A stretch of DNA of 64,000 nt from positions 1,128,128 through 1,192,127 of the forward strand of contig CAWFJD010000017.1 in the NCBI GenBank assembly GCA_963816135.1, given 5' to 3'. Source of the DNA: an uncultured Chloroflexia bacterium. Its GTDB lineage: Bacteria; Chloroflexota; Limnocylindria; Limnocylindrales; CSP1-4. Positions 4,059 to 63,728 of this stretch are shown piece after piece. The translations under genes and the position numbers were made by a program. The notes under the pieces were generated by a model. It was not told the origin of the DNA. It saw only the letters and a list, made by a program, of their open reading frames with translations, and did not search any database. Within the stretch, counting starts at the first letter, position 1; each line of letters starts with the position of its first letter.

Positions 4059-4101
4059 CCCGACCCCAATGGCCACTCAGTCGGCCGGACTCGAAGGGAA
4101 C

Positions 4102-21010: not shown

Positions 21011-23572
21011 ATGACGGCTGTCAGAAGCCGTGTTGTCAGGACGATCGGCTGCGGGATCGCGAGCCTGCTGATGGTGGCCGCGCTGCCTTTGGCGGCCTTC
21101 GCCGTGACGCCTGTCGTAACCCAATACGCGATGTCGCCTTCGCCCATCGCCGCGCCCGCTTCCCTTGCCGCGGGCGCAAACGTTTCGATCACCGTGTCGG
21201 CCGAAACGGCCACCAATAGTCTGGTTCCCGGCGCGGTCATCTTCCTGTCGTTCACCCAGGCGACTGGAGGCGGAACGGCCTCCGTCGGCACGACGAGCCT
21301 CGGCAAGACGCCCGTTGCCTTCACCGCGGCATCGGGCACGGTGACGGTCACGTACACCGCCCCGGCCGTGTTGCCGGCTAACGGCCGTGACACGCTCAAG
21401 GCCGCCGACGCCAAGTCGCTGCCCACGATTTCGACCACGGACACCTACGACTTCGCCGCGCCGCTCAGCTACGTGTGGTCGCCGGATCCGATCGCCGCGC
21501 CCGGTTCCGTGGCTGCGGGTAGCACGGTTTCACTCACCGTGACCGCGGAGAACGCGACGGCCGCCCCGGTCCCGAACGCGACGGTCTATCTGTCCTTCGT
21601 CCCGGCGACAGGCGGCGGTTCGGCGACGGTGGGTACCACTGCCCTGACCGCCACGCCGACGGCCTTCGTGGTTGGGGCTACGGGCCAGCTCGCGGTCACC
21701 TACCAGGCGCCTGTGGCGTTGCCGGCAAGCGGCACCGACACGATCGCGGCCCAGCAGACGCCCACGAGCGCCAAGCGGACCGACAGCTACTCCTTCGGAA
21801 CGCTGGGCTCGATCACGTTCTCTCCCAGCCCAATCGCAGCCGCGGGTTCGCTGACGCCCGGGCAAACCGTGGCGGTCACACTCGAGGCCAAGGATGTCGG
21901 CGGTAATCCCGTTGCCGGCCAGGCGCTCTTCCTCACCTTCGTGCCGGGGGCCAATGGCGGCACGGCGATGTTCGGGACTCGGGCGCTCTCGGCGACGCCG
22001 ATTCAAATCAAGACAGACAGCGCCGGCCAGGTGGTGATTCAGTACGCGGCCCCGACCATGGCGGGTGCGACCGGCACCGATACCCTCACGGCCGGCGACG
22101 CCAAGACCAGCCCGACCTTGTCGGCAACCGACAACTACAGCGCCTCGGCGGGTAGCGGCGGGCCCGGTCCGCTCAACCACCTGGTCCTGAGCCCGGCACA
22201 CGCGACCGTGAACCCAGGAGTGGCCCAGGCTTACACCGCTGCCGGTTTCGACGCCAACGGCGTCGCTCTCGGCGACGTGACCTCGGCTACCACCTTCACG
22301 ATCGCCGGCGGCACGTGCACGGCCAACTCCTGCACGGCCACGGCGGCCGGAGATCATACGGTCACTGGCACGGATGGCTCCGCGACCGGCACCGCGACAC
22401 TTACAGTCAGCGGCGTTCTCGGGGCGGTTTCCGGCGATACCTACCATCCAGTTACCCCCGTCCGTCTCCTGGACACCCGGGCCGGCAACGGCCACTCGGG
22501 GCAGCTCGTGGCCAACACTCCCATCACGTTCCAGATCACGGGCCGCGGCATCCCGGCCGGAGCCACCGCGGTCACCGGCAACCTCGCCGTGACGGGTTCG
22601 AGCGCGTCCTGGGCCGTCTACCTGGGCCCAGATCCGGTCGCCTCACCTTCCAGCTCGACGATCAACTTCGAGAAGGGTCAGACCACGGCAAACGGACTGA
22701 CCGTCGCGTTGAGTTCCACAGGCTCCCTATCGGCGACATACATATCCACCGCGGGCAACACGACCGACCTCGTGTTCGACGTGACGGGTTACTTCACGAC
22801 CGATACGACGGGAGCCACCTACCACCCGATGGACCCGGCTCGCCTTCTCGATACCCGAGCGGGCAACGGTCTCTCGACCCGGCTGAGCGCCAACACGCCG
22901 GTGACCTTCCAGATCACCGGCCGCGGCGGGGTGCCGGCTGGCGCCACGGCGATTACCGCCAACGTCACCATTGTCGATGAGACGGCCGCCTGGGCGGTCT
23001 ACGTTGGCCCGATCCCGACCGCCAGCCCGACCACTTCGACCATCAACTTCAATGCCGGCGACGTCAAGGACAACAACTTGACCGTGGAACTGGGAAGTGG
23101 CGGCACCTTGTCTGCCACCTATCTGTCGAACGCGGGCAACACCACGGATCTGGTTCTCGATGTGACCGGCTACTACACCGCGGACCTCACCGGTTCGGAG
23201 TTCGTGCCGATCACCCCGACCAGGCTCCTGGACACTCGCTCCGGCAACGGCTTGTCCGGCATGTTTAGCGCCAACACCCCGCGATCCTTCCAGGTGGGCG
23301 GTCGCGGCGGCATACCGGCAAGCGCCACGGGCGTGACCGGGAACGTCGCCGTGGTCAACGAGACGGCCTCCTGGGCCGTCTTCGTGGGGCCCGATCCGAT
23401 GGCCAGCCCAACAACTTCAACGCTCAACTTCATCGCGGGCCAGGTGGTCGCGAACGGGATGACCGTGGCTCTCGGGTCCGGCGGAACCCTCAGCCCAACC
23501 TACATCTCCACGGCGGGCAACACCGCCGATCTGGTCTTCGACGCCACGGGCTACTTCGTGGCAGCGGGCTAA
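21011..23572 (+). CDS. Secreted protein: signal peptide, 3 Ig-like (Big-type) repeats, a Big_2-like domain, and a C-terminal triple ~126-aa repeat module
   Basis: 853 aa. The signal peptide is MTAVRSRVVRTIGCGIASLLMVAALPLAAFA. There are three ~115-aa units of the form SP.PIAA.GS...G..V..TV.A.......PV.....FLSF....GG..A.VGTT.L..TP......G...V.Y.AP......G.DT, then a Big_2-like segment. The protein ends in three repeats that each begin YHP.TP.RLLDTR.GNG and end DLVFDVTGYF. Confidence 0.75.
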   Translation: MTAVRSRVVRTIGCGIASLLMVAALPLAAFAVTPVVTQYAMSPSPIAAPASLAAGANVSITVSAETATNSLVPGAVIFLSFTQATGGGTASVGTTSLGKTPVAFTAASGTVTVTYTAPAVLPANGRDTLKAADAKSLPTISTTDTYDFAAPLSYVWSPDPIAAPGSVAAGSTVSLTVTAENATAAPVPNATVYLSFVPATGGGSATVGTTALTATPTAFVVGATGQLAVTYQAPVALPASGTDTIAAQQTPTSAKRTDSYSFGTLGSITFSPSPIAAAGSLTPGQTVAVTLEAKDVGGNPVAGQALFLTFVPGANGGTAMFGTRALSATPIQIKTDSAGQVVIQYAAPTMAGATGTDTLTAGDAKTSPTLSATDNYSASAGSGGPGPLNHLVLSPAHATVNPGVAQAYTAAGFDANGVALGDVTSATTFTIAGGTCTANSCTATAAGDHTVTGTDGSATGTATLTVSGVLGAVSGDTYHPVTPVRLLDTRAGNGHSGQLVANTPITFQITGRGIPAGATAVTGNLAVTGSSASWAVYLGPDPVASPSSSTINFEKGQTTANGLTVALSSTGSLSATYISTAGNTTDLVFDVTGYFTTDTTGATYHPMDPARLLDTRAGNGLSTRLSANTPVTFQITGRGGVPAGATAITANVTIVDETAAWAVYVGPIPTASPTTSTINFNAGDVKDNNLTVELGSGGTLSATYLSNAGNTTDLVLDVTGYYTADLTGSEFVPITPTRLLDTRSGNGLSGMFSANTPRSFQVGGRGGIPASATGVTGNVAVVNETASWAVFVGPDPMASPTTSTLNFIAGQVVANGMTVALGSGGTLSPTYISTAGNTADLVFDATGYFVAAG
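22439..23569 (+). repeat. C-terminal tandem triplet of an uncharacterised ~126-aa domain (copies 1-3 of 9 in the window)
   Basis: The per-repeat consensus is [YF].P..P.R.LDTR.G.G........P.TF...G..G.P..A.AVTGN.TV......W.V..GP.......STINF..G....N.LTV.L...G.LSATY.S..G...DLV.DVTGY[FY]. It was read directly from the translation. Confidence 0.7.
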
Positions 23573-28614: not shown

Positions 28615-29673
28615 CTACGAGATGGCGATCATCCGCTCCAGGGCCTGTCGGGCGCGGCCGGCGACATCTTCCGGCACGGAGATCTCGAACTGGTCCAGCG
28701 CCAGCGAGTCGCGCAGCTTCTCGAGCGTGGTCAGCTTCATGTACTGGCAGATCGCCTCGCGGTTCACCGGCACGAAACGCTTGCCCGGTGCCTTGAGCGC
28801 GAGCCGGTGGAGGATGCCGATTTCGGTCGCGATGAGGAATGCCGGCGCGGCCGAACGCTCCGCGTAGGTGACCATGCCCTCGGTCGAGAGGACGTGGACG
28901 TCTTCACCCGCGGCGGCAGCGGCATCGATGACCTGGCTCGTGCAGCCGCACTCCGGGTGGATCAGAAGCTCGGCGCCGGGCTCCGCGCGATGCCACTCCT
29001 CCACGTCCGCCGGCCGGATGCCCGCGTGGACGTGGCACTCGCCAAGCCAGAGGATCAGCTTGCGGCCGGTTACTCGCCGGAGCCACATTCCCAGGAACAG
29101 GTCCGGCAGGAAGAGGATTTCGCGGTCGGCGGGAATGGCCTCGATGACGCCGCGGGCGTTGCCGGAAGTGCAGCAGTAGTCGCTCTCGGCCTTGACGGCG
29201 GCGCTCGTGTTCACGTACGAAACCACGACCGCGCCCGGATGCTCGGCCTTCCAGGCCCGGAGCTGATCCACGCTGATCGAGTCGGCGAGCGAGCAGCCGG
29301 CGGCCAGGTCCGGGAGGAGAACGCGCTTCGAGGGCGAGAGGATCTTGGCGGTTTCGGCCATGAACGCGACGCCGCAGAACACGATCGTGGACTGGCGGGC
29401 GGACGCGGCGACGCGGGAGAGCATCAGGGAGTCGCCCACGTGATCCGCCACGTCCTGGATTTCCGGCCGCTCGTAGGAATGGGCCAGGATGACGGCGTCG
29501 CGCTCGGCCGCAAGGCGGCGAATCTCGGCCTGGAGCTCGGGGAAGGTCGCGGGATCTCCCGCGGGCGGGATGGCCGTCGAGCGGGCGGCCTCCAGGCGCG
29601 CGAGCTGGCCGGCCGAGACGTCGACGGAGGACGAAGCGGTCGATGACGCCGAGGCCGAATGTTGGTCGGTCAC
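28615..29673 (-). CDS. nadA: Quinolinate synthase NadA
   Basis: Full-length match to NadA (AVILAHSYERPEIQDVADHVGDSLMLSR...FMAETAKILSP...SYVNTSAAVKA...CTSGNA...GECHVHAG...HPECGC...). The GTG start at 29673, preceded by GAGGT, overlaps the nadC stop (GTGA). Confidence 0.85.
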   Translation of the reverse strand: MTDQHSASASSTASSSVDVSAGQLARLEAARSTAIPPAGDPATFPELQAEIRRLAAERDAVILAHSYERPEIQDVADHVGDSLMLSRVAASARQSTIVFCGVAFMAETAKILSPSKRVLLPDLAAGCSLADSISVDQLRAWKAEHPGAVVVSYVNTSAAVKAESDYCCTSGNARGVIEAIPADREILFLPDLFLGMWLRRVTGRKLILWLGECHVHAGIRPADVEEWHRAEPGAELLIHPECGCTSQVIDAAAAAGEDVHVLSTEGMVTYAERSAAPAFLIATEIGILHRLALKAPGKRFVPVNREAICQYMKLTTLEKLRDSLALDQFEISVPEDVAGRARQALERMIAIS

Positions 29674-30603
29674 CCGATTACCTCGAGCGAGACGTCGAGC
29701 GCCTTGACCGAATGCGTGAGCGCCCCGAGCGAGACGAAGTCGACGCCGGTCTGGCCGACCGCGCGAAGGTTGTCGAGCGTGATGCCGCCGGAGGCTTCGG
29801 TTTCGACCCGGCCGCCGACGATCTCGACCGCGGCGCGCAGCATCTCGACGCTCATGTTGTCGAGCAGTATCCGGTCGACCCCGGCTTCGAGCGCTTCGCG
29901 GACCTCGTCGAGCGTTTCGGCCTCGACTTCGAGACGCAGCTGTGGCGCGATGTGCGCGAAGGCGGGCGACCGCCGGAGCGATGCCGCCGGCGAGGCGAAG
30001 GTGGTTGTCCTTGACGAGGAGCGCCTCGCCGAGGCTCATCCGGTGGTTCGTGCCGCCGCCGCACCGGACCGCGTACTTCTCGAGCTCGCGCAGACCGGGA
30101 GTGGTCTTGCGAGTGTCGAGCAGCGTGGCGCCCGTCCCTTCGAGTTCGGCGACGCATCGGGCGGTCAGCGTTGCGATGCCGCAGAGGCGGCCGAGGATGT
30201 TCAACGCCGTCCGCTCGCCCGCGAGAACGGCTCGGGCGGGACCTGTGATGCGGGCAATCTCGGCGGGAACATGGTCCACTCGCTCGCCGTCCTGGACCTC
30301 GGCCGTGATCGTGACCGCGGGATCGAGCGCGGCGAACACGGCCCGGACGACCGGCAGGCCGCAGATCACTCCGGGTTCCTTGACCAGAAGAGAGGTGCGG
30401 GCGATGGCCTGGGCCTCGAACAGGCCTTCTGAAGTGGGGTCGCCCGCCGCCAGGTCCTCGGCGAGGGCCAGGGCCACGACCCGCTCCACGGCCTGCGGGT
30501 CGGGCGGGCGGACGAGGCCGGGAGTGACGGCGGCTGCGGCGTCTGCTGCGGCTGCGGCGGCCGCCGCGGCGGCGTTGAAGGAGTCCACGAGTTCGCCAGA
30601 CAT
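29670..30603 (-). CDS. nadC: Nicotinate-nucleotide pyrophosphorylase (quinolinate phosphoribosyltransferase) NadC, with one apparent 1-nt frameshift near 29950-29990
   Basis: The N-terminus (DPTSEGLF...LLVKEPGVICGL...LAGERTALNILGRLCGIATLT...TRKTTPGLRELEKYAVRCGGGTNHRMSLGEALLVKDNHLRLAGGIAPAVARLRAH) is in the frame starting at 30603. The rest (IAPQLRLEVEAETLDEVREALEAGVDRILLDNMSVEMLRAAVEIVGGRVETEASGGITLDNLRAVGQTGVDFVSLGALTHSVKALDVSLEV) is in the frame ending at stop 29670. Confidence 0.8.
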
Positions 30604-32077
30604 CAGGACCAGTGCTCCAGGGAGAGTTGCTTACCCGGCCGGAGGACGAAATGGCCCTCGAAGGCCGGATCGGGGGCGGGGGCGTCGATACGGTAATGGA
30701 CGCCGCGACTCTCGCGTCGGGCCAGGGCGAACGTGGCTACGAGCGCGGCAACGGGGTCCGCGACGCAGGCGAGATCCGCGAGAGCCAGAGGGTCGCGCAT
30801 GACGCCGGCCTCACGCCAAACCTGGTCGCGGAGCTCGTTCGAGACGACGCGCTCGTGGGCGCGGGTGTGGCCGGGGCCGGTGCCGTGGCCGTGGCCGGCC
30901 GTGGCCGTGGCCGGGGCCGCAGACTTCGCCGCCTGGCCCAGCGCCGCCAGGTCGTTCGCCTGCGCGAACCGGGGCCGACTCGTCGAGCGCCGCCAGGGCC
31001 GCGCGCCTGCCGAAGACCAGGCATTCGAGGAGCGAGTTGGAAGCGAGCCGGTTGGCTCCGTGGACGCCGGTCGCGGCGCATTCGCCCGGCGGCGTACAAA
31101 CGCGGAATGTCCGTCCGGCCGTCGAGGTCCGTGACGATGCCGCCGATCGTGTAGTGGGCCGCCGGCGAAACGGGCACCGGAGCGCGGGCGGGGTCGTAGC
31201 CGGAGCGTTCGATCTCCGCCATCAGGCCCGGGAAACGGCCTCGGTCGATTGCCCGCAGATCCAGGAACACCCGGCCCTGGCGAACCATCGCCCGGGCAAC
31301 CTCGTCGCGGGGCGCCAGCTCGTCCACGAAACGCTCGCCCGCCGCGTCGAGGAGCGTGGCGCCCTCGCCTCGGAGGGCCTCGGTCAGGAGCAGCCGCGAG
31401 CCTTCCAGCACCGTCGGATGGAATTGCATGAACTCCATGTCCGCGACGGCCGCGCCGGCACGGACCGCCAGCGCGATCGCGTCCCCGATCTGGCCCATCG
31501 GGTTGGTGGATCGAGCCCAGAGCGCGGCGGCTCCGCCCATCGCGAGGACGGTGGCGCGGGACCGGATCGTTCCGGTGGCGGTCACGACGCCGAGACACTG
31601 CCCGCCTTCCACCCACAGGCCTCGGACGTCGGTCTCCTGCGTGATCGCGATCCGCTCGTCGCGAACCGCCCGTCGCTCGAGCAGGCTCGTGACCGCCCAG
31701 CCCGTGACGGCCCCCTCCACGCTCGAGACGCGCCGGCGCGAGTGGCCGCCTTCGAGGCTGAGCTCGGGATCGAACGGCACGCCGAACGCGATGAGCTCGC
31801 GAACCCGCTCCGGCCCTTCTTCGACGAGGACGTGGACGGCGCTCGGCCGGCACAGGTCCCGCCCCGCCCGCTCCGTGTCGATCTGGTGGAGCGCCGTGGT
31901 GTCGTCGTCGCCCATCGTGGCCGCGATCCCGCCCTGGGCATGCCAGCTCGAGGAGTCGGGGGCGTGGCCCTTGGTCACCATCAGAACGGACGCGCCCTGG
32001 TCCGCGGCGGTCAGCGCGGCGGTGAGTCCGGCCGCGCCGGAACCGACGACGAGGACGTCGGGAATGTTGGAGGTCAC
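30603..32077 (-). CDS. nadB: L-aspartate oxidase NadB, with two apparent 1-nt frameshifts (about 31085 and about 30990)
   Basis: The FAD-binding N-terminus ([22 protein letters not shown]...) is in frame 1 up to ...RLYAAG. The next segment [38 protein letters not shown] is in a second frame. The C-terminus (...[12 protein letters not shown]...[15 protein letters not shown]...[14 protein letters not shown]...) is in a third frame. Both shifts fall in homopolymer runs (ccGGGcg and gCCCCg). The nadB stop overlaps the nadC start (ATGA). Confidence 0.8.
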
Positions 32078-34557: not shown

Positions 34558-36759
34558 ATGGCGCGGAATATGGACCGAGCCGTGCAGGTTCCGACTCTCC
34601 CGGGCGCGTCTTTCCGGCTGCCCCCGCAACTCGAAGGGCTGCGCCGCCTTTCGTACAACATGTGGTGGGCCTGGAACCCGCGAGCCCGGGCGCTCTTCAG
34701 CCGTATCGATGGCCTGTCATGGTCTCGATACCGCAACCCGGTGGAGGTCCTCTCGCAGCCGATCGCCTGGTCGGAGCTGCTCGACGACCCGGCCTTCATG
34801 GCCGAGTACACCCAGATCCTCGCCGAGTTCGACCGGTACATGGCCGGCGGCCGCGAGCACTGGTTCAACCGTGAGTACGGTGGGGCGCTCTCCAAACCCA
34901 TCGCCTATTTCTGCGCCGAGTACGGCTTCCACGAATCGCTCGGCATCTATTCGGGCGGTCTCGGAGTCCTGGCAGGCGACCACATCAAGTCCGCGAGCGA
35001 CATGGCCATGCCGTTTGTCGGCGTGGGCCTGCTCTACAAGCACGGGTATTTCCGCCAGACGATCGACGCCGACGGCCACCAGGAGCACGCCTACCCGGAC
35101 TACGACCTCGCCGAGCTGCCGATCCTGCGGGTCCTTGGACCAGACGGTGAGCCGCTGACGGTCTCGGTCGAGTTGCCGGGACGAGACCTGTTCGCCGCCG
35201 TGTGGCTCGTCCAGGTTGGCCGCGTACCCGTCCTGCTGATGGATACGGACATCCCGGACAACGCGGAATCGGACCGGCCGGTCACCCAGATCCTGTACGT
35301 CCGCGGCCGCGAGATGCGCCTCCACCAGGAGCTCGTCCTGGGCGCCGGCGGTGTCCGAGCTCTCAAGGCCCTCGGCATCGACCCCGCCGTCTGGCACCTC
35401 AACGAAGGCCACTCCGCGTTCCTCCTCGTCGAGCGAACGAGGGCGCTCGTGGCCAAGGGCGTGCCACTCGAAGAAGCCCTGGATCGGGTCCGATCCAACT
35501 CCGTCTTCACCATCCACACCCCGGTCTCAGCCGGTAACGAGCGCTTCGACGCGGACCTGGTTCGCCGGGTCGCCGGGCCTCTCTACGAGGGCGACGGCCG
35601 AAAAGGCACCGGCGGCGTGCCGATGGATCGCGTCCTGGAGCTCGCCCGCGGCGTGGACGGCGACACTCGCTCGCTCGACATGACGGCCCTCTCGCTGCGC
35701 ATGTCGATGGCGGCCAACGCCGTGAGCAAGCTGCACAGCGTCACGGCCAACAACACCTGGCAGGGTCTGGGCAACAAGCAGATCCTCGCCGTCACGAACG
35801 GCGTCCACATGCCCACCTGGGTCGGCCAGCCGATGCGCTATCTGTTCGAGCGCCATCTCGGCGCCGAGCTCGACAACGTCGACGCCCGCGACGGCGCGGG
35901 CGCCTTCTGGGAGCGGACGGACCAGATCCCGGACGTGGACCTCTGGGAAGCGCACCAGCGCCAGAAGCTCGAACTGATGATCTTCGCCCGCAACCGGCTG
36001 CGCCACCAGTTCGCCCGCCACGGCGAATCGCCGAACACGCTCGAAGAACTCGAAGACGTGCTCGACGTCGGCACGCTGACCATCGGCTTCGCCCGCCGGT
36101 TCGCGACCTACAAGCGGGCCGCGCTCATCTTCTCGGACATGGATCGCCTCGCCCGGCTGCTCTGGGACAAGGACCGGCCCGTCCAGATCATCTTCGCCGG
36201 CAAGGCCCATCCCGCCGATCGACCCGGCCAGGGCGTGATCCAGGAGATCTTCGCCCGGTCGCGTTCGCCGCAGCTGCGCGGTCGAGTCTTCATGCTCGAG
36301 GACTACGACATGCGCGTCGCCCGGTTCATGGTCCAGGGCGTGGACGTCTGGCTCAACAACCCGCGCCGCCCCCTGGAGGCGTCGGGGACCAGCGGCATGA
36401 AGGCCTCGGCCAACGGAGTCGCCAACCTGTCGGTCCTCGACGGCTGGTGGGACGAGGGCTGGGTCGGCGACAACGGCTGGGCCATCGGCGGCCGCGAGAC
36501 GAACCCCGACGAAGGCGCTCAGGACTACAACGACGCCCAGGATCTCTATCGCCTCCTCGAGCAGGAAGTCGTGCCGCTCTACTACAACCGAACCGAGGAC
36601 GACGTGCCCGAGGGCTGGACGGCAGAGATGCGCCGCTCCATCGGCAGCACGCTCTGGCGGTTCTCCACGGTTCGGATGCTCCACGAATACGTCGAGTGGA
36701 TGTACATGCCCGCCGCCGGAGTCCAGCCGAAGAAGCCTTCAGGCGTCCCCGGCCGGTAG
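34558..36759 (+). CDS. glgP: Alpha-glucan phosphorylase (GlgP, GT35, short alpha-glucan-family type)
   Basis: 733 aa, intact frame. Reads MARNMDRAVQVPTLPG...LSYNMWWAWNPRARALF...FCAEYGFHESLGIYSGGLGVLAGDHIKSASD...GTSGMKASANGVANLSVLDGWWDEGW, diagnostic for the alpha-glucan phosphorylase family. Confidence 0.85.
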   Translation: MARNMDRAVQVPTLPGASFRLPPQLEGLRRLSYNMWWAWNPRARALFSRIDGLSWSRYRNPVEVLSQPIAWSELLDDPAFMAEYTQILAEFDRYMAGGREHWFNREYGGALSKPIAYFCAEYGFHESLGIYSGGLGVLAGDHIKSASDMAMPFVGVGLLYKHGYFRQTIDADGHQEHAYPDYDLAELPILRVLGPDGEPLTVSVELPGRDLFAAVWLVQVGRVPVLLMDTDIPDNAESDRPVTQILYVRGREMRLHQELVLGAGGVRALKALGIDPAVWHLNEGHSAFLLVERTRALVAKGVPLEEALDRVRSNSVFTIHTPVSAGNERFDADLVRRVAGPLYEGDGRKGTGGVPMDRVLELARGVDGDTRSLDMTALSLRMSMAANAVSKLHSVTANNTWQGLGNKQILAVTNGVHMPTWVGQPMRYLFERHLGAELDNVDARDGAGAFWERTDQIPDVDLWEAHQRQKLELMIFARNRLRHQFARHGESPNTLEELEDVLDVGTLTIGFARRFATYKRAALIFSDMDRLARLLWDKDRPVQIIFAGKAHPADRPGQGVIQEIFARSRSPQLRGRVFMLEDYDMRVARFMVQGVDVWLNNPRRPLEASGTSGMKASANGVANLSVLDGWWDEGWVGDNGWAIGGRETNPDEGAQDYNDAQDLYRLLEQEVVPLYYNRTEDDVPEGWTAEMRRSIGSTLWRFSTVRMLHEYVEWMYMPAAGVQPKKPSGVPGR

Positions 36760-36839
36760 GTCAAGCGGGCAAGGGACCATTCGAGGTTCGTCTTGCGCGG
36801 CGCCTCGCCAGGTCGACCGGCAAGCGCGGTGGGGCTTTG

Positions 36840-38165
36840 ATGGAGAAGGCAATGGCGGACTACCAGTGCGGCGCCTGCGGCGCGCGAGTGACCGGAGATA
36901 CTCTGGTCTGCCCGGCATGCGGCCACAAAGCCGGCCAGAGCTGCGTGAGCTGCGGGTTCGTGACTTCCCGGACGGCATTCATCGGCGAGCCGTGCCCGAA
37001 TTGCGGCTCTACCGCGCACCTCCCCAAGGCTCGGGCGGGCGACTGGTCCGGCGTCCTGAAAGCGGGTGCGTTCATCCTGGGCGTCGTGCTGGTGGGAACG
37101 ATCCTGGCTTTCGTCCACGGCGAGTTCCAGTCGCCGCCAGGCATCAGGGGACCCATGGTCGAGGCGCGGAGTGGACACACGGCCACCGCGATCGCCGGCG
37201 ACCGCGTGCTCCTCGTAGGCGGCGTGGGTGGTAATGGGCCGCTCGCCACGGCGGAGATCTTCAATACCGCTTCGCGAACGTTCACCGCTACGAGTTCCCT
37301 CACAACGGCCCGGAGCGGCCAAACCGCAACGCTGCTCGCCGACGGCAGAGTCCTGATCGCGGGCGGCCAAGGAGCGTCGGGGCCGACGACGAGCGCCGAG
37401 ATTTACGATCCCGCGGCGGGCATGTTTAGCGCGACCGGCTCGATGCAGACCGCGCGGACCTCCCAGACGGCAACGATGCTCGGAAATGGGCTCGTCCTGC
37501 TCGCCGGAGGCCAGGGAGCTTCAGGGCCTCTCGCGAACGCCGAACTCTACGATCCGAAGACGGGATCCTTCTCTGCCACGGGGCAGATGACGACCGCGCG
37601 TGTCCGTGCCACGGCCACGGCTCTGGGCGACGGTCGCGTGCTGATCGTGGGCGGGCAGGGCGCGGCCGATCTCGCCAGCGCGGAGATCTATGACCCCTCG
37701 AGCGGCAGCTTCACCGCCACAGGATCGCTAAAGACCGCCCGCCAGAACCACACCGCGACGCTCTTGCCCGGCGGCAGGGTTCTGGTCGCAGGGGGCGGGC
37801 AGATGTCCTTCGGGAGCACGTTGGCCTCTGCGGAGATCTACGACCCCGCTACCGGGACGTTCAGCGAGACCGCGCAGATGAGCGTGCCTCGAGAGAACCA
37901 CACAGCCACTCCCCTGCCCGACGGTCGAGTTCTGATTGTCGCCGGCGAGAACAACGCGGTCGACCTCTCTTCCGCGGAGATCTACGAGCCAAGCTCCGGC
38001 AGGTTTACCACGGCAGGCGTGATGCCGTTCGCATGCGACAGCCAGACCGCAACGGCGGTAAGCGGAAAGGTGCTGATCGCGGGCGGCCGAGCCGGCAATC
38101 CGCTGCCGACGGCCATCCTCTTCGACCCGGCTACCGGCGCGTTCCAGGGTCTCGACAACAGGTAG
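36840..38165 (+). CDS. Double zinc-ribbon, single-TM, Kelch-repeat protein
   Basis: From ATG 36840 the product starts MEKAMADYQCGACGARVTGDTLVCPACGHKAGQSCVSCGF...GEPCPNCGSTAHLP (four CxxC pairs), then a TM helix (GAFILGVVLVGTILAFV), then six Kelch-type blades (TATLLADGRVLIAGGQG...AEIYDPA.G.FS.TGSM). The listed ORF start at 36447 overlaps glgP and was rejected. Confidence 0.7.
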   Translation: MEKAMADYQCGACGARVTGDTLVCPACGHKAGQSCVSCGFVTSRTAFIGEPCPNCGSTAHLPKARAGDWSGVLKAGAFILGVVLVGTILAFVHGEFQSPPGIRGPMVEARSGHTATAIAGDRVLLVGGVGGNGPLATAEIFNTASRTFTATSSLTTARSGQTATLLADGRVLIAGGQGASGPTTSAEIYDPAAGMFSATGSMQTARTSQTATMLGNGLVLLAGGQGASGPLANAELYDPKTGSFSATGQMTTARVRATATALGDGRVLIVGGQGAADLASAEIYDPSSGSFTATGSLKTARQNHTATLLPGGRVLVAGGGQMSFGSTLASAEIYDPATGTFSETAQMSVPRENHTATPLPDGRVLIVAGENNAVDLSSAEIYEPSSGRFTTAGVMPFACDSQTATAVSGKVLIAGGRAGNPLPTAILFDPATGAFQGLDNR

Positions 38166-56533: not shown

Positions 56534-59500
56534 CTACTTCAGGAAGTATCCGGTGACGTCGAAGACGAGATCCGTGGTCGCGCCCGACGGACCCATGTAG
56601 GTTGCTGTCAGCACACCTCCAGGGCCAAGGGCGACGGACAGGCCGTTGCCCTTGGATTGACCGCCCAGGAAGTTGACCGTCGAGGTGCCGGGCGAGGCTT
56701 CGGCGACCGGGCCCAGGTAGACGGCCCAGCCCGACTTGTCGTTGACGACCGTGACGTTGCCGGTGACCGCGAGAAGCCCATCGGGGAGGGCGGCCTGTCG
56801 AGCTATCGGGAAGGTGCTCGGACTGTTGGCCAGCAGGCAGCTCGGCAGACCCAAGTGGGCTCGCGTGTCCAGCAGCCGAGTTGGCGCTATCGGCACGAAG
56901 GCCGAGCCCGACATGTCGGCCGTATAGAAGCCCGTGACGTCGAAGACGAGATCGGTTTTCGCGCCGGCGGGTCCCATGTACGTCGCGCACAGCCGTCCCG
57001 CGGAGTCGAGCGAAACGCTCAGGTTGTTGCCGGCAACCTGCCCCGACGTGAAGTTCACAGCCGAGGTCGATGGTTTGCTCGTGGAGACCGGCCCGAGATA
57101 GACCGCCCAGGCCGCCGACGGATTTACCACCGTTACGTTGCCGGTGACCGCCTTCGCCTCCAGGGGAAGTCCGTTCCGACCGGCCACCGAGAAGCACGCG
57201 GGCGTGTTAGCCGAGAGTCTCGCCGGGAGACCGATCGCGTGCCGCGTATCCAGCGAGCGCACAGGATCGATCGGGTGATAAGTCTGGCCGCTGGCGTCCG
57301 TGGCGTAGAAACCGGTGACGTCGAAGACGAGGTGGGTCGTCGCCCCGGCCGGGCCCATGTAGGTCGCCGACAGCGTTCCATGGCTGGACAGGGCGACGGT
57401 CAGGCCATTGCCCGCCGTCTGGTTGCCGACGAAGTTGATGGTCGAGGCCGGCGGATGGGCGATTGGATCAGGCCCGAGGTAGGCCGCCCAGGGGGCCGAC
57501 GGACTGACCACGGTGAGGTTCCCGGTGACCGCGATCGCCTTGTCCGGAATGCCGCTCCGGCCGGTGATCTGGAACGTCTTCGGGCGTGTTAGCCACCAAC
57601 TTGCCCGACAGCCCGTTGCCGGATCTGGTGTCGAGGAGCCGGACAGGGTTGATGGGGTGATACGTAGACGAACCGGCGGGCAACGAGATGACACCACCGA
57701 CGGAGTTCGAGGGCGCGGAGGCCGGGCCCCAACCCACGGCGTTGCCAGCCTGAACCGTGAAGGTGTACGCCGTGTTCGCGGCGAGGCCCGTTGCCGTGCA
57801 ATTCAGGGCACCGGTCGTGGTGCATGTCTTGCCGGCCGGCGAACTCGTAACCGAGTAGCTCGTGATCGCGCTGCCGCCGTCTGAAGCGGGCGCGGACCAG
57901 CTTACGGTCGCCCCGCCGCTGCCGAGAACTGCCGTGACACCGGTTGGGGCACCCGGCACGGTCATCGTCGCGCTGATGGTGACCGTTACCGTGCCCGTGG
58001 CCGTCCCGCTTTTGCCGTCCGAGACCGTGTAGGAGAACGAGTCCGACCCCACGTATCCCGACTGCGGCGTGAACCTGATCTTTCCCTTATCCGTGCCACT
58101 CCCGACGATTACGACAGTCCCGTGATCGCCACTCGAGACCGCCGTGACGCTCAGGGTGTCGCCGTCCGGATCGCTGTCATTGGCGAGCAGCGTTGCCGGC
58201 GCGATGAGGAGTGCCGTGTTCACGAGCGTGCTCGCCGCGTCGTCGACCGCCACCGGCGGATGATTTGGAGTCACGGTGATCGAAACGGTGGCCGTGTTGC
58301 TCTGAAGGCTGGCGTCGCTGGCCACGTAGGTGAACGAGTCCGAGCCGGAGAAGCCGGTGGCTGGAACATAGTTGATCGTGCCGTTGACGACGGACGCCGT
58401 GCCGTGTGACGGCTGAGTCACGAGCGTGGCCGTCAGGCTGTCTCCGTCGGCGTCGGTATCGTTGTCGAGGACGCGGATGGTGACCGACGATCCCTGGGCC
58501 GTGGTAGCCGAGTCGTCGACCGCGATGGGAGCATGGTTGACCGTAGCAACCGTGACCGTCACGGAGCCCGTGGCCGTCCCGCCCAGGCCGTCAGACACGG
58601 TGTAGCTGAACGAGGCGGGGCCCAGGTACGCAGCCTCCGGGGTGAACAGGATCTTGCCCAGGTCGGCGCCGCTGGCGACGATTTCGACCGTGCCGTGGAC
58701 GGGGCTCGAGACCCCCGCGACTGCCAGGACATCACCATCGGGGTCGGTGTCGTTGGCGAGTAGTGTCGCAGGCGCGATCAGGAGCGGCGTGTCGATGACG
58801 GTCGTTGCCAGGTCGTTACCCGCCACCGGCGGATCGTTGACCGGAGTGACCGTGATCGTGAAAGACTGAGTCGGGCTCGCGTCTACCCCGCCGCCCGCGG
58901 TTCCGCCGCTGTCGACGAGATGGAGGACGAGCGTGGCCGATCCGTTGGCGTTGGGGGCCGGCGTGAAGCTCAGGGTCCCAGTAGGGTCAACGGCAGGGCC
59001 GGCGCTGAAGAGTGCGCCGTTCGTGTTCGAGTCGATCACGAACGAGAGGTTCTGGCTCGCCTCGTCGGCAGGACCCGCGCTCATGCCCGTGGCCCAGCCC
59101 AGGAGTGAAGCCGGACCCGAATCCTCGGCGACGGTCTGGTCCGCACCCTTAGCGAACGAGGGCGGGTCGTTGACCGGCGTGACCGTGATCGTCACGGTGG
59201 CCGTGTTGCTTGGAAGGCTGCCGTCGCTCGCCTGGTACGTGAACGAGTCGGCGCCGTTGAAGTTGGCCGCCGGGGTGTAGGCGAAGATCCCGTTGCTCAA
59301 GAGGTTGCCGGTGCCGTGCGTTGGACCGCTCACGAGAATGGCGGTCAGGCTGTCGCCGTCGGCGTCGGTGTCGTTGGCGAGGACGTGGATGGCGACCGAC
59401 CCGTCCTCGGCCGTCGTGGCGGAGTCGTTGACCGCGACCGGGGCATGGTCGACCGGCGCCGATGGCGTGACGGCTCCGGACGGGTCCGATTCGGGTCCGT

Positions 59501-60923
59501 CACCGACGTTGCTGTGGGCCCGAACGGTGAAGGTATAGGCCGTCCCGTTGGTGAGGCCCGGGACGTCGGCACTCGTCGTGTTGCCGACCTGGACGACCAG
59601 CCCACTCTGAGCCGTCCCGCCGACGTACGGCGTGACGACGTAGTGGTCGATCGTGCCGCCGTTTGAGGGTGCCGCCGTCCATGTGACATTCGCGGTCGCG
59701 TTCCCCGCGGTGGCGCTGACGGAGGTCGGTTTGCCCGGGAGTTGGGGCGTCACACTCACCATGTCGTACGTGAGATCGAACTGACTCGAAGCGTCGGTCT
59801 CGTACAGGCCCGTCCAAGGGTTGTAGGTCCGCGCGTGGATGCGGTCATTGTCCGGATCGAACACGTAGTAGCGGAGCGTGCCCATCGTGTTCGTCCCGGT
59901 ACCCATCGAGCGAGACTGGTAGTCGCTCAGGACTTGATACACCGGCGTCGAAAGGCAGGCCGAGTTCGTATGCATGTCGGTCCGGTGCGCCTCGCCGCTC
60001 GTGTAGCTGTCGTCGTCGTAGTTGTGGCCGGCGATGACCAGGAAGACATTGCAGCGCGGCGCGATCAGGTTCGTGAACACCGTCGCGGGGGTTGTGGCGG
60101 AGGCGCCGGGAATATCGTCGTACGAAGGCGGGTCGGTGGAGTAGTCGGTCATCCGACTGCCGTCCGTCTCGAGGAAGCCGTGCGTCGCGATGATCGCCCG
60201 GTAGCCCGGATGGGCGTCGAGGACGCGTCCCGCCCAGGCCACGGCGAAGTTCGGGAGCCCGTATTCCAGGTTGACGACGAGGAAGTCCATGCCGCCGGCG
60301 GTGAACGTCCCCCAGTTGTCCATGCTTTCCCTGTCCGGGTCGGTGCTCAGGGCGTAGGGCTGTCCGGGGCCGAGATATCCGCCGTATTGAGCCGTGCTCC
60401 ATGCGCTCTGCCAGGGGGAGCGGGATGAGAAGCGGCTCGGCGGGAAGGTAGATTCGAAGAGAGCCGCGTCGCCATCCGCTAGACCCAGGTCGTGGTTTCC
60501 CGGGAGAACGCTGTAGGGGAAGTTGGCGTTGTCGAGGATCTTGAACGCGTTGCTCGCCGTGGTGTACGCCGACTGGCTCGTGTTCGTGTTGACCACGTCG
60601 CCGAGCTGAGCCGCCCACACCGAGCGCAGCGACGCCTTGCTATCGGCGATCCATTGAATCTGGGCCACGCCCCGCTGACGCTCGTCCGAGTCGCCCTCGA
60701 ACATGTTCTGCGTGTCCGGGATCGCGACGAACGTGAACTCCGTGGAGCCGACAGGCGTCGTCGCGGCGAGGGCGGGCGGGGCCGTGAAAGCCTGCAGCAA
60801 TCCTGCCCCCAGGGCAGCCACGACGACGATCCGCCGAGCTCTGCCTGCGGCGGACTGCCGACCGGCAACAGGCACCGTAACCCGCGGCACCCGACCCACC
60901 CTGAACACCAAAGGCCTCCTCAC
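56534..60923 (-). CDS. Giant secreted surface protein (one gene with a 1-nt frame shift near 57590): signal peptide, calcineurin-like metallophosphoesterase, FN3, 5 cadherin-like/VCBS-type Ig repeats, FN3, and the C-terminal triple ~126-aa repeat
   Basis: The signal peptide is ...VVVAALGAGLLQAFTAPPALA. The metallophosphoesterase has GNHDLG and ATHGF motifs. The FN3 reads SATAGNATANVTWTAAPSNGGTIDHYVV...YTFTVRAHSNVG. Five ~100-aa units carry VNDPPV...LANDTDADGD/LANDTDPDGD. The upstream ORF ends in STYHPINPVRLLDTRSGNGLSGKLVANTP followed by frame garbage. The repeat continues as KTFQITGRSGIPDKAIAVTGNL... in the 56534..57697 ORF. Confidence 0.7.
56537..57680 (-). repeat. C-terminal tandem triplet of the ~126-aa domain (copies 4-6)
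   Basis: Same consensus as at 22439..23569 (YHP..P.R.LDTR...G ... DLVFDVTGF[YF]). Confidence 0.7.
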
Positions 60924-61151
60924 CCCAAGTTCCAGCCCCCCGGCTGGACAGACCCTGCGATCACCGCGACCGCTCAGACGCGCCGGTCCGCGAGGGCCGG
61001 CGAGGCCGAGCCATTATCGTCCGGTACTTTCGCTGCTGTACAGGTACTTTCGGGTGGGATTCCGGTGCGTGCTGCCACCGCGGGGCCACCGCCGAGCGGG
61101 TGGGCTCAGCGAGGCGGCGCCGGCCGCTGCCATGCCTTCAGCGATGGGAGA

Positions 61152-63728
61152 TCAGGGCACGTAGTAGCCGGAGACGTCGAAGACGAGATCGGTGCCGTTG
61201 CCGGGGTTCGACATATACGTTGCGGACAGTGTTCCGGACCCCGCCAGCGCCACGGTCAGGCTGTTGCCACGGACCTGGCCCGCATCGAAGTTGATCGACG
61301 ACGTCGTCGGGGCCGCCGTCGCGTCCGGGCCGACGAAGACCGCCCACGGACCCGTCTCGTTGACGACGGTCAGATCGCCCGTGACCGCTCGCGCGGTGGC
61401 CGGCACGGCGTCCTTGCCGCCGATCTGGAAGGTTACCGGCGCATTGGCCCGCATCGGGCCCGCAACGCCCGCCCCGCTACGCGTATCGAGCAATCGGAGA
61501 GGCGTGATCGGCACGAAGGAGACTCCCGTCCCATCGGCCGTGAAGTAACCGGTCACGTCGAACACCAGGTCGGTGCTATTGCCGGGGTTGGACATGTACG
61601 TGGCGCTCAGCGTGCCGCCCGAGCCGAGGGGAACGGTAAGGTTGTTGCCCTGCGTCTCCCCGGCCGAGAAGTTGACCGTTGACGTGGTGGGCGCGGCGCT
61701 GGGCACGGGACCGAGAGCCACGGCCCATGCCGAAGTGGGATCCACCACCGTCAGATTGCCGGTGACCCCTACGGCGTTCGAAGGGACTCCATTTCGGCCG
61801 GCCACCGCAAAGGTCCGCGGCGTGTTGGCCAGGAACCTGCCGGTCAACCCGTTGCCGGCTCGTGTATCGAGCATCCGCGTGGGGCTCATGAGGTGGAATG
61901 TGTCGCCGGACACCGGGGCGAAATAACCCGTGACGTCGAACACGAGGTCGGTGCGACTTCCCGAGGTGGACATGTAGGTAGCCGAGAGGGATCCGGTCGG
62001 CGACAGCGGCACGGTCACGCCGTTGCCCGCGACCTGACCGGCGGCGAAGTTGATCGTCGAAGTGCTCGGCGTCGAAGTCTCCTGCGGTCCAAGGAATACG
62101 GCCCAGCCGTTGGTGGATCCGGTCACCGTCAGATTTCCGGTCACCGCGGTCGCGTTCGAGGGTATGCCGGCTCGGCCGGCAACCTGGAATGTCGCCGGCG
62201 TATTCGCCTGAAGGCTCGCGGGCAGGCCATTCCCAGTCCGGGTGTCCAGAAGGCGAGTCGGAGCGACGGCGTGGTAGGTCGACTTCACGATGGGAGCGGC
62301 CGGTGTCGCCGGCGCGGAATCCGCCGAGGGCGGCCCTTCACCGGCCAGATTCGCCGCAGTCACGCTAAACGTGTACGTCGTCCCGTTGATGAGCCCCGTG
62401 ATGGTGCAACTCGTGGCGCCGCTGGTCTGGCAAATCTCTCCGGCCGGGCTGGAAGTGGCCACGTAGCCGGTGATGGGAGATCCGCCGTCGCTGGCGGGAG
62501 CGCTCCACGAGACCGTGGCCGATTGATCGCCGGCGATGGCCTGGACGTTGGTAGGAGCACCTGGCGGCAGGGACGGTGTAGGCGTCGGGGTCGGCGTCGG
62601 CGTTGGGGTCGGGCGCGGGGTCCTGATCGGCGTTGCGGTGGCGCCTGCGACGGCATTGTGACAATTGAGGGTCCCGCTGTCCGTGAACGAACCTGTCGCG
62701 TCGATGAATTTCCAGCTCATGCTGGCCTGGTGCAGGGTCATCGCCAGGATGCCGAAGCTCGTCGTGTCCTGGACGACGCTGTTGGGCGCCAGCGCCGCGA
62801 TGCCCGTGTGATTGGAGCCCCCGGTGCCTACCGTGAACTGGGTGATGCCCGTGGTCATGTCAACCAGGCCGGTTGGCGTCTGGGGAAGGAACCGCTCGTA
62901 GATGTGGTCGTGGCCATCGAGGACGACGTCGGCTTGAGCCGCATACAGCTGCTGCCAGAGCGGCAATGAGTTGATCGAAGCTCGGCCTCCGGAGCTGAAT
63001 AGCGGGATATGCCAGTAGGCCAGCGTGCACTGTCCCATGTGAGATCCAAGGTCACTGGCGAGCCACTTGCTCTGCGGCGACCCTGGTTGGCATCCGCCAA
63101 CATCCGCGCAGTTCGAGTTCAGGGCGATGAGGTGCCAGGCTCCCACGTTGTAGCTGTACCAGCCCTGACCCGGGGTTCCAGCTGCCGAACCGAAGTAGCC
63201 AAAGTAGCCGGCTCCGTTGAGATTCGTTTGATCGCAGCCGGTGACGGTGCCGCCTCCGTTGTCTGTCAGGTACTCGTGGTTGCCGGGCACCGGATGCGTG
63301 ATCGACTTCACCCTGCCCCAGCTGGTGTCATAGGACTGCTGATACGCGGACAGACTGCCGCAGTAGTACTGGTTGTCCCCCAGTGACAGGACCGCCGAGT
63401 AGCCGTGACCGGCCAGAAGGTCAGCCGTCGCGTTCTGCTCGCAGCCAGTTCCGGTGCCGCTTCCACCGCGGTAGTTCGGGTCCAGCGGATCGCAAGCGAT
63501 GTCGCCGGCGGCGGCGATGACCGGGTCTCCGGCCGCGGCCGCGGCCGAGGAGACGGACGCGTACTGAGCGAGCCAGGGCACGACGGTGAAGGCGCTCACA
63601 GCCAGGGCCAGACCGGCGATCATCCGCACGGCTGCAGTGGCCACTCCGGGAGTTGATCTTCGGCCGCCGCGTTCAACCCGGCCGGCCGGGCTTGCGTCAA
63701 AGTCGGTACGGGTGGGGCGCAAACGCAT
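61152..63728 (-). CDS. Secreted metallophosphoesterase (purple-acid-phosphatase-like), FN3, then the C-terminal triple ~126-aa repeat
   Basis: Signal peptide (VRMIAGLALAVSAFTVVPWLAQYA). The metallophosphoesterase motifs are GDIACD, GDNQY, GNHEY and GHDHIYERF. The FN3 reads PGAPTNVQAIAGDQSATVSWSAPASDGGSPITGYV...YTFSVTAANLAGEG. Three repeats then begin STYHAVAPTRLLDTRTGNG, TFHLMSPTRMLDTRAGNG and SFVPITPLRLLDTRSGAG. Confidence 0.75.
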   Translation of the reverse strand: MRLRPTRTDFDASPAGRVERGGRRSTPGVATAAVRMIAGLALAVSAFTVVPWLAQYASVSSAAAAAGDPVIAAAGDIACDPLDPNYRGGSGTGTGCEQNATADLLAGHGYSAVLSLGDNQYYCGSLSAYQQSYDTSWGRVKSITHPVPGNHEYLTDNGGGTVTGCDQTNLNGAGYFGYFGSAAGTPGQGWYSYNVGAWHLIALNSNCADVGGCQPGSPQSKWLASDLGSHMGQCTLAYWHIPLFSSGGRASINSLPLWQQLYAAQADVVLDGHDHIYERFLPQTPTGLVDMTTGITQFTVGTGGSNHTGIAALAPNSVVQDTTSFGILAMTLHQASMSWKFIDATGSFTDSGTLNCHNAVAGATATPIRTPRPTPTPTPTPTPTPSLPPGAPTNVQAIAGDQSATVSWSAPASDGGSPITGYVATSSPAGEICQTSGATSCTITGLINGTTYTFSVTAANLAGEGPPSADSAPATPAAPIVKSTYHAVAPTRLLDTRTGNGLPASLQANTPATFQVAGRAGIPSNATAVTGNLTVTGSTNGWAVFLGPQETSTPSTSTINFAAGQVAGNGVTVPLSPTGSLSATYMSTSGSRTDLVFDVTGYFAPVSGDTFHLMSPTRMLDTRAGNGLTGRFLANTPRTFAVAGRNGVPSNAVGVTGNLTVVDPTSAWAVALGPVPSAAPTTSTVNFSAGETQGNNLTVPLGSGGTLSATYMSNPGNSTDLVFDVTGYFTADGTGVSFVPITPLRLLDTRSGAGVAGPMRANAPVTFQIGGKDAVPATARAVTGDLTVVNETGPWAVFVGPDATAAPTTSSINFDAGQVRGNSLTVALAGSGTLSATYMSNPGNGTDLVFDVSGYYVP
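61155..62300 (-). repeat. C-terminal tandem triplet of the ~126-aa domain (copies 7-9)
   Basis: Same consensus; each unit ends ...DLVFDV[TS]GY[FY]. Confidence 0.7.

Follow-up and report, generated by a model that had tools for sequence, protein, structure and literature searches.

Two metallophosphoesterase-like proteins of an uncultured Limnocylindrales bacterium share a C-terminal triple-repeat module that belongs to no named family

Introduction

Secreted phosphoesterases that are held on the cell surface and scavenge phosphate or nucleotides are already well known. Three SLH or three CWB2 repeats constitute non-covalent wall-binding modules of monoderm bacteria. A different arrangement is found in the Gram-positive nucleotidases of the UshA/CpdB type, in which a metallophosphoesterase head is combined with an LPXTG cell-wall anchor (PMC10454023, PMC8475336). 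The present work deals with two genes, referred to as gene A and gene B, that lie near the end of a 64,000-nt stretch of contig CAWFJD010000017.1 from an uncultured bacterium assigned to the Limnocylindrales (Chloroflexota). This stretch, at its full length, is called the window, and positions are counted from its first letter. The proteins encoded by both genes comprise a metallophosphoesterase-like catalytic domain (head), a spacer and a C-terminal module of three repeats. An original prediction, made from the letters alone, described these genes as a tandem pair coding for secreted metallophosphoesterase fusion proteins, the larger of them interrupted by an indel. The open reading frames (ORFs), motifs and repeats that it listed were all found in place.

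The interpretation preferred here, to which a probability of roughly 0.6 is assigned, is that genes A and B are separate, that each encodes a secreted binuclear metallophosphoesterase built of a head, a spacer and a module that holds the protein at the surface, and that the break in gene B is an insertion introduced by the assembly. The enzymes themselves are of ordinary kinds. The value of the locus lies in the module, which is confidently folded, is inherited as a triplet and has tens of thousands of members, while Pfam, NCBIfam and the Protein Data Bank (PDB) contain no entry for it.

The named top matches of both heads and of the module come from metagenome-assembled genomes of Candidatus Limnocylindrales or Chloroflexota. 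Limnocylindria is an abundant, uncultured class of soil and freshwater bacteria, the cell envelope of which is essentially unstudied. The GC content of the window (~67%) agrees with the 68% given for the soil and sediment families of Limnocylindria (PMC13212565).

The triple-repeat module

The proteins of genes A and B both end in a 376-aa module made up of three repeats of ~126 aa. A third copy is encoded by a separate gene of the window (gene C, Table 1), and the three copies are 55–65% identical to one another by tblastn. The product of gene C consists of a signal peptide, about four Ig-like repeats of ~125 aa, a further beta-rich segment and then the module; no Pfam or NCBIfam match was obtained for its N-terminal part. 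Searches with the module itself against Pfam, NCBIfam and the PDB sequences gave no match, and a profile of a single unit matched no PDB sequence either. When Pfam hits were admitted up to an E-value of 10, only a spurious Crystallin fragment appeared, and neither SLH (PF00395) nor CWB2 (PF04122) was among the hits. The family is nevertheless very large. A word-indexed search gave more than 2000 close homologues, and the hidden Markov model (HMM) profile of the unit matched 32,270 representatives of clusters at 50% identity with E ≤ 1e-3 (8,728 with E ≤ 1e-30) among 1.84 billion. The original prediction had treated the module as an incidental part of the two proteins. On the contrary, it is a mobile unit outside all named protein families, and the least understood and most interesting part of the locus.

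The number of units is strongly conserved. Nearly all proteins matched by the unit profile contain three matching stretches, some of them six or nine, and exactly three units are present in 113 of 120 close homologues of the module. In 113 of these 120, too, the module ends no more than 10 aa from the C-terminus. The nearest relative of a unit in another protein occupies the same position (first, second or third) in 200 of 240 cases, and the units within one protein are 66% alike, compared with 56–59% for same-position units of different proteins. This indicates joint inheritance of the three units, which have been homogenised to some degree within individual genes.

The AlphaFold2 model of the module is all-beta and of high confidence, with a predicted local distance difference test (pLDDT) score of 96 and a predicted template-modelling (pTM) score of 0.91. 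Each unit contains nine strands, and long strands run from one unit into the next. Together with the high pTM, this points to a single rigid body and not to beads on a string. The Foldseek comparison of the whole module with PDB structures yielded only weak matches to multidomain proteins with TM-scores of ~0.2, including glucosyltransferase 5x7o, Vip3 toxins, Xyn30D, a CBM22 tandem and the "triple jelly roll" of STIV. Several of these are described as carbohydrate-binding-module or jelly-roll proteins.

The Pfam annotation revealed a broad range of fusion partners. They include SpoIID, often together with FN3, as well as GH18, subtilases (Peptidase_S8), PKD, FN3, RCC1 and PQQ-type propellers, CarboxypepD_reg, thioredoxin-like domains and many heads that belong to no family. 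Complete module proteins begin with ordinary signal peptides. The peat-metagenome contig Ga0116103_1004972 (L003) carries two adjacent module genes (2791–4812), one of which encodes a signal peptide, SpoIID, FN3 and the module in this order and is intact across the ANTPxTF site discussed below. The second has an in-frame TAG in a repeat unit (INFNAG*VVGNNLTV) and is either a disrupted paralogue or the product of a sequencing error. Plasmids of Streptomyces, Curtobacterium, Arthrobacter and their relatives encode three-unit modules at 29–37% identity, in proteins labelled by the Prokaryotic Genome Annotation Pipeline (PGAP) as hypothetical, PKD, LamG-like, cutinase-family or RHS proteins. In the cutinase-family and RHS proteins of Actinomycetota the module is N-terminal and directly follows the leader. 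Two such genes are located on Curtobacterium plasmids, one for a 1069-aa "cutinase family protein" (L083, 2845–6054) and the other for a 1529-aa RHS repeat protein (L084, 5716–10305), and both adjoin conjugation genes.

The module is probably an envelope anchor that binds a cell-surface glycan, because it is a terminal fixed triplet, is attached to unrelated secreted heads, occurs in several paralogues per genome and can be replaced by SLH. The SpoIID fusions are in line with this, as SpoIID works on the peptidoglycan of the producing cell itself. It is tentatively suggested, at somewhat less than even odds, that the module represents a new class of non-covalent surface anchor, which defines the displayed exoenzymes of Limnocylindria and Chloroflexota and has been reused N-terminally in secreted proteins of Actinomycetota. 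An explanation that we consider doubtful is that it is a carbohydrate-binding module directed at substrates or particles, so that the enzymes would be released and home to external polysaccharide, to plant or fungal walls or to other cells. The descriptions of several weak structural matches agree with targeting, as does the N-terminal placement in Actinomycetota, and for the GH18, cutinase-family and RHS partners target binding makes sense and fits better than anchoring. However, SpoIID, whose substrate is the peptidoglycan of its own cell, is also among the partners, the phosphatase and protease partners have no polysaccharide substrate, and numerous paralogues with unrelated heads in one genome (three in the 64-kb window, two adjacent on L003) are typical of anchors. 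Besides, SLH occupies the corresponding place in relatives of the gene A enzyme.

If the module is an anchor, both proteins would be exported by means of their signal peptides, and the C-terminal module would bind an envelope glycan and keep the enzymes on the surface of the producing cell. The FN3 spacer and, in gene B, a cadherin-like stalk of ~500 aa and of the Ca-binding type would hold the head away from the wall. In this position the gene A product would free phosphate from external monoesters, and the gene B product would cleave some phosphoester. Surface display had also been suggested by the original prediction, and it appears plausible in view of the signal-like N-termini, the eight cysteines of the gene A family, the spacers, the module shared with other exoenzymes and the SLH domains of gene A relatives. 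Should the anchoring role be true, a single profile would suffice to list the enzymes that Limnocylindria display on their surface, and the module, which comprises more than 32,000 clusters (50% identity), would be among the largest surface-display domain families still without a name. The profile would further provide an annotation for thousands of Actinomycetota proteins now called "hypothetical".

The catalytic domain of gene A

The N-terminal region of the gene A product resembles a signal peptide, with a basic stretch followed by the hydrophobic core MIAGLALAVSAFTVVPWLA and an Ala-rich end. The conserved domain of its homologues begins at DPVIAAAGD, directly after a comparable leader. From these features and from the similar N-terminus of gene B we infer that both products are secreted. 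More than 6560 homologues of the gene A head were found at E ≤ 1e-5, many of them 60–73% identical, under the database names "acid phosphatase type 7", "metallophosphoesterase" and "calcineurin-like phosphoesterase". The best relatives of solved structure by sequence are purple acid phosphatases (6gja, E = 1.9e-4; PDB).

In an alignment of 27 homologues of the gene A head, the motifs GD, GDxxY, GNHE, WH and GHDHxYER show little or no variation; gene A itself reads GD, GDNQY, GNHE, WH and GHDH. The metals of purple acid phosphatases are bound by seven residues (D, D, Y, N, H, H, H), and gene A has each of them: D12, D54, Y57, N86, H176, H209 and H211, where residue 1 is the first of the family alignment. 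Six of the seven are invariant among the 27 homologues, and N86 and H209 are kept in at least 90% of the sequences. Eight cysteines are invariant in the same family, which is consistent with an extracellular disulfide-bonded enzyme. The gene A head is a purple-acid-phosphatase-like enzyme of the ACP7 type with a complete set of metal ligands, which most likely releases phosphate from extracellular phosphomonoesters.

The Pfam search detected no plant-type Pur_ac_phosph_N domain ahead of the head of gene A or gene B. The sole match to PF16656 was sub-threshold (23 bits against 30) and overlapped the second FN3 domain of gene B. The FN3 domain of gene A is well supported (PF00041, E = 2.6e-16, 60 bits against a cutoff of 25). 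Where gene A has the module, related enzymes have FN3, CBM96/DNRLRE, SLH or nothing at all.

The divergent catalytic domain and the stalk of gene B

The catalytic domains of genes A and B are, as judged by sequence, members of different families and not paralogs, as they do not align with each other (blastp E = 0.06); any relationship is confined to the superfamily level. Homologues of the gene B head are far rarer. Only 44 were found, most of them with a precomputed PF00149 assignment; the closest (68% identity) comes from a metagenome-assembled genome of Candidatus Limnocylindrales, and others, named "metallophosphoesterase", come from Streptomyces and Microbacterium. Over 35 aligned sequences, reaching down to ~30% identity, no variation was found in the D and Q of DTQ, in GD, in GNHD, in one H and in GH. 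In comparison with the canonical series DxH/GD/GNH[DE]/H/GHxH, the His of motif I is replaced by Gln, and the second His of motif V is not conserved; motif V of gene B itself reads GHNY. The Tyr-containing GDxxY motif is not present in the gene B head. The original prediction had ascribed GNHD[L/E][GY] and GHDH motifs to the two enzymes and had made the assignment dependent on the catalytic residues. Gene A has GNHE and GHDH with every ligand in place, and gene B has GNHD but deviates in motifs I and V.

The AlphaFold2 model of the gene B head, calculated on the family alignment, is confident (pLDDT 90, pTM 0.92), and Foldseek matched it to metallophosphoesterase structures with a probability of 1.0 and TM-scores of ~0.5. 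The matches (1ute, 1qfc, 3zk4, 2ush, 2xmo, Rv0805 and Mre11) represent purple acid phosphatases, the E. coli 5'-nucleotidase UshA, Lmo2642, Rv0805 and Mre11/SbcD. The assignment of the four-layer alpha/beta metallophosphoesterase fold to the model is secure.

It seems rather improbable that the gene B head is a catalytically dead version of this fold and that the protein acts mainly as an adhesin, with a cadherin-like stalk and a binding head. This possibility is suggested by the altered motifs I and V, the Pfam Metallophos match of only E = 0.022, the presence of the inactive fold relative GAP50 (3tgh) among the Foldseek matches and the tandem-95/cadherin stalk, which is typical of adhesins. 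On the other hand, the invariance of D, Q, GD, GNHD, H and GH in all 35 sequences points to a maintained metal site, and UshA is itself among the structural matches. A Gln serves as a metal ligand in this E. coli 5'-nucleotidase. Judging from the conserved residues, the gene B head is probably still a metal-dependent phosphoesterase, and together with its relatives it forms a small, divergent metallophosphoesterase family in which motif I is a conserved Asp-Thr-Gln.

The spacer of gene B is longer than a single domain. Two FN3 stretches (Pfam, E = 9.3e-29, 99.9 bits) enclose five repeats matched by Big_9 (E = 1.3e-97, 321 bits), Cadherin_5 (E = 1.1e-79, 263 bits) and Cadherin_4 (E = 8.2e-70) of Pfam and, in five stretches, by the NCBIfam tandem-95 model NF012211 (E = 1.9e-80, 265 bits against a cutoff of 90). 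The five units, of 93, 111, 100, 91 and 98 aa, had originally been described as cadherin-like or VCBS repeats. Their number and their cadherin-like, tandem-95 nature were reproduced, but the VCBS model TIGR01965 remained below its 15.5-bit cutoff (13.4 bits, E = 0.064), and the NDTDxDGD motif is present in only four units, the divergent unit 2 being without it. The closest pairs are units 1 and 4 (68% identical) and units 3 and 5 (66%), which indicates a recent internal duplication of a two-unit block. In the orthologue from the SPRUCE_463 genome (Limnocylindrales) the cadherin-like repeats are missing and the head directly precedes a repeat unit, which indicates that the stalk of gene B was gained recently.

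Frame breaks in gene B and in the nad genes

Gene B is assembled as two overlapping ORFs of 1151 and 387 aa. Deletion of one C from the CCC at 57582–57584 gives an uninterrupted protein of 1462 aa, in which LVANTP is directly followed by KTFQITGRSGIP; without the deletion, the upstream frame reads GKLVANTPEDVPDH and the other frame TRPKTFQITGRSGIP. The paralogous repeats have ANTPxTFQ[IV]xGRxGIP at the equivalent site, in agreement with the corrected gene B. The GC-rich third-codon phase switches at ~57590, and the GC content of third codon positions (GC3) then stays at 0.78–0.90 to the end of the gene, so that the coding signal persists over the 1.05 kb that follow the break. Of 96 positions with a conservation of at least 90% in the family, the module of gene B retains 91 (family range 81–96, median 93), and its units score on a par with those of genes A and C. 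The original claim that the two ORFs are one gene is borne out by these data. The indel does lie inside a repeat, as had been proposed, although this is the first unit of the triple-repeat module and not a cadherin-like repeat.

The genes of NAD synthesis in the same window are broken in a similar way. In nadC, positions 1–76 and 79–169 of the QRPTase_C profile are in different frames, and the first frame runs open into nadA, which produces a spurious "nadC-nadA" fusion ORF of 662 aa. The gene nadB is spread over three frames, with the FAD-binding domain in ORF 30737..32077 and the C-terminal domain in ORF 30603..31853. An extra G is located in GCCGGGCGAA (GCCGG[G]CGAA, 31078–31090) and is followed by a motif of 20 residues in the second frame, and a second insertion can be placed only to ~30900–31000. 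Altogether, four insertion-type breaks were found in three genes within 64 kb, each in a G/C-rich context and each mended by the removal of one base. Four one-base insertions in three otherwise well-conserved genes form the pattern of a systematic assembly error. Consensus errors of long reads are known to be biased towards insertions.

It is thus reasonably probable that the frame break of gene B is an artefact of assembly, caused by a one-base insertion. The opposite explanation, which is unlikely but deserves consideration, is that the break is real and that gene B is a recent pseudogene or encodes a truncated enzyme of 1151 aa that has lost the module and is released from the cell. The CCC does stand in the assembled sequence, and no near-identical sequence contradicts it. 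A search of genome and metagenome contig collections revealed no near-identical DNA by which the break could be judged; the genome contigs contain one gene B orthologue of 68% identity, which is cut by a contig end, and the metagenome contigs reach 66–71% at best. Disrupted paralogues do exist, since a module gene on the unrelated contig L003 has an in-frame stop, and nadB and nadC could belong to a decaying pathway. Against a real break speak the full coding signal of the downstream 1.05 kb and its conserved residues, the number of which is well inside the family range. The accumulation of at least four defects in a short region, all repaired by single-base removal, argues in the same direction, and the nadB and nadC defects lie in an otherwise well-conserved NAD operon.

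Expression of gene B by programmed +1 ribosomal frameshifting at CCC-G is very improbable. CCC-N is a site prone to +1 shifts in enterobacteria, and skipping the G after CCC would give exactly the expected ANTPKTF. However, the homologues (genes A and C and the L003 gene) stay in one frame through the equivalent ANTPxTF site, no stop codon or obvious stimulatory element was seen at the gene B site, and breaks of the same type are present in nadB and nadC.

The GC3-based frameshift scan also flagged 14.3–15.2 kb and a number of gene junctions, where only ordinary neighbouring genes were found. The scan is crude and missed both nadB and nadC, which were found through split Pfam domains. The glucan phosphorylase gene was suspected of being split at 36.4–36.8 kb as well, but this was dismissed, as the next ORF encodes a Kelch-repeat protein. 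Since the window holds several one-base insertion frameshifts, frameshift-aware gene calling is needed for this assembly.

Several observations weigh against the interpretation of the locus as two genes for surface-held, active metallophosphoesterases. The Pfam Metallophos profile PF00149, with a cutoff of 21.5 bits, is not reached by either head (20.8 bits, E = 5.7e-4 for gene A; 15.6 bits, E = 0.022 for gene B). Gene B is without two canonical ligands of metal 1, so that its head might have no activity or another chemistry. It is also conceivable that the frameshifts are real and that nadB and nadC are decaying together. Finally, the N-terminal position of the module on cutinase-family proteins and RHS toxins of Actinomycetota fits target or substrate binding equally. 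Because the Pfam scores are below the cutoff for both heads, the metallophosphoesterase assignment rests on homologues and invariant residues and, for gene B, on the predicted fold; many close homologues of both heads pass the PF00149 gathering cutoff in precomputed annotation. On these grounds, and with the signal-peptide-like N-termini, the originally proposed identity of both products as secreted multidomain metallophosphoesterases was upheld.

Upstream region of gene B and gene neighbourhood

Genes A and B are separated by a spacer of 228 bp, which contains two exact copies of the 10-bp repeat CGAAAGTACC flanking a promoter-like sequence (Table 1). A GGAGG ribosome-binding site precedes the GTG at 60908, and the block around this site and the start codon is conserved upstream of the SPRUCE_463 orthologue. 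Because of this alignment, GTG 60908 is probably the start codon of gene B. One exact copy of CGAAAGTACC is also present upstream of the orthologue (L001, 9677–9686), beside the palindrome AGTACCGAACGGTACT. The conservation of the upstream region indicates that gene B probably has its own regulated promoter, and the repeat is a candidate site for a regulator. A search of Rfam detected no RNA family in the 56–64 kb region.

The link to phosphate starvation, which the original prediction named as a check, was not substantiated. No recognisable Pho box was seen in the window, and none of the ~35 larger ORFs scanned in the window is a pst or pho gene. The CGAAAGTACC repeat, the only one found in the upstream region, is unlike the known Pho boxes of E. 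coli, Bacillus and Streptomyces, and to our knowledge none has been defined for Chloroflexota. Control of genes A and B by phosphate starvation is a guess.

The upstream neighbour of the orthologue in the SPRUCE_463 genome is a DUF885 gene and not a phosphatase gene, which indicates that the pairing of genes A and B is not conserved. An operon or a tandem duplication was considered and rejected, as the heads are unrelated and no synteny exists in L002, the only relative with genomic context. With a separate upstream region of gene B in addition, the description of the genes as a tandem pair had to be abandoned.

The rest of the window is devoted to alpha-glucan metabolism (GH13, GH57, phosphorylase, LacI and ABC permease genes), NAD synthesis, Kelch proteins and other functions. 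Positions 34558–56456 are taken up by a large gene cluster for the utilisation of alpha-glucans, which is convergent with gene B and comprises a glucan phosphorylase of the DUF3417 type, three GH13 enzymes, two GH57 enzymes, a LacI regulator and an ABC permease. One of the GH13 enzymes is 1177 aa long and has a long Ala/Pro-rich C-terminal extension. Three Kelch-repeat beta-propeller proteins are encoded in the window (36–1406, 2769–4058 and 36447–38165, plus strand), one of them with a double zinc-ribbon N-terminal region.

Table 1. Location of the genes, domains, regulatory elements and frame breaks described in the text
Feature	Position in the window	Strand	Basis
Gene A, 858 aa: signal-like N-terminus, purple-acid-phosphatase-like metallophosphoesterase, Pro/Thr linker, FN3, triple-repeat module	61152..63728	-	ORF list, Pfam, homologues
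Gene A N-terminal region, aa 1-66, probable signal peptide	63531..63728	-	Sequence reading
Gene A catalytic domain, aa 67-362, purple-acid-phosphatase-like	62643..63530	-	Family alignment, PDB match
Gene A Pro/Thr linker TPRPTPTPTPTP	62565-62642	-	Precedes FN3
Gene A FN3 domain, aa 389-478	62295..62564	-	Pfam PF00041
Gene A C-terminal module, three ~126-aa beta-sandwich repeats	61155..62282	-	tblastn self/paralogue matches, unit alignment, AlphaFold2
Gene A module units	61902-62279, 61521-61901, 61155-61520	-	Unit alignment
Gene B, 1462 aa after one-base removal; assembled as ORFs 57468..60923 (1151 aa) and 56534..57697 (387 aa)	56534..60923	-	ORF list, corrected translation
Gene B signal-peptide-like N-terminus, aa 1-53, ending in GRARRIVVVAALGAGLLQAFTAPPALA before ATTP (PPALA/ATTP)	60765..60923	-	Sequence reading
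Gene B catalytic domain, aa 54-391, divergent metallophosphoesterase, motifs DTQ/GD/GNHD/H/GH	59751..60764	-	Homologues, invariant residues, AlphaFold2, Foldseek
Gene B first FN3, aa 396-487	59463..59738	-	Pfam fn3
Gene B stalk, five cadherin-like/tandem-95/Big_9 repeats, aa 494-986	57966..59444	-	Pfam, NCBIfam
Gene B second FN3, aa 989-1073	57705..57959	-	Pfam, best stretch 992-1073
Gene B C-terminal triple-repeat module	56537..57668	-	tblastn, unit alignment
Gene B module units	57284-57665, 56903-57283, 56537-56902	-	Unit alignment
CCC run with probable one-base insertion splitting gene B	57582..57584	-	Frame comparison, corrected translation, GC3
Intergenic region upstream of gene B	60924..61151	-	Sequence reading, L001 comparison
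Direct repeat CGAAAGTACC, two exact 10-bp copies	61043-61052, 61023-61032	-	20 bp apart
Promoter-like TGTACA-18-GATAAT flanked by CGAAAGTACC copies	61042..61013	-	Sequence reading
Gene C (third module gene), 853 aa; module at 22439-23569	21011..23572	+	tblastn
nadC (quinolinate phosphoribosyltransferase) split by one-base insertion	Junction 29937-29952; ORF 28615-30603	-	Pfam domain split
nadB (L-aspartate oxidase) over three frames, two one-base insertions	31078-31090; ~30900-31000	-	Pfam domain split

Comparison with known systems

By its head, gene A belongs among the bacterial purple-acid-phosphatase-like metallophosphoesterases (PF00149, "acid phosphatase type 7"), to many of which it is 60–73% identical and with which it shares the GD/GDxxY/GNHE/H/GHxHxYER set of ligands and the conserved cysteines. 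Unlike plant purple acid phosphatases, it has no N-terminal Pur_ac_phosph_N domain, and unlike its relatives, which carry nothing, CBM96/DNRLRE, FN3 or SLH, it combines FN3 with the triple-repeat module.

The proposed arrangement resembles that of the Gram-positive UshA/CpdB-type nucleotidases, in that a secreted binuclear metallophosphoesterase would be held on the surface of a monoderm cell and act on extracellular phosphate esters or nucleotides, and UshA is one of the structural matches of the gene B head. Genes A and B differ from these systems in the lack of both the 5'-nucleotidase C-terminal domain and an LPXTG/sortase signal; in place of the latter, the putative anchor is a non-covalent module of 376 aa.

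The five repeats of gene B are like those of tandem-95, Big_9 and bacterial cadherin-like adhesins, with scores far above the cutoffs and the acidic NDTDxDGD motif in four of them. In contrast to large adhesins, they constitute a short internal stalk between the enzyme head and the terminal module.

With SLH and CWB2 the module shares the fixed triplet at a protein terminus, the unrelated secreted heads and the many paralogues per genome, and SLH is carried by P0276, a relative of the gene A enzyme. However, SLH units are helical and CWB2 units alpha/beta, whereas the units of the module are all-beta sandwiches of ~126 aa with no sequence relationship to either, so the likeness would be one of function only.

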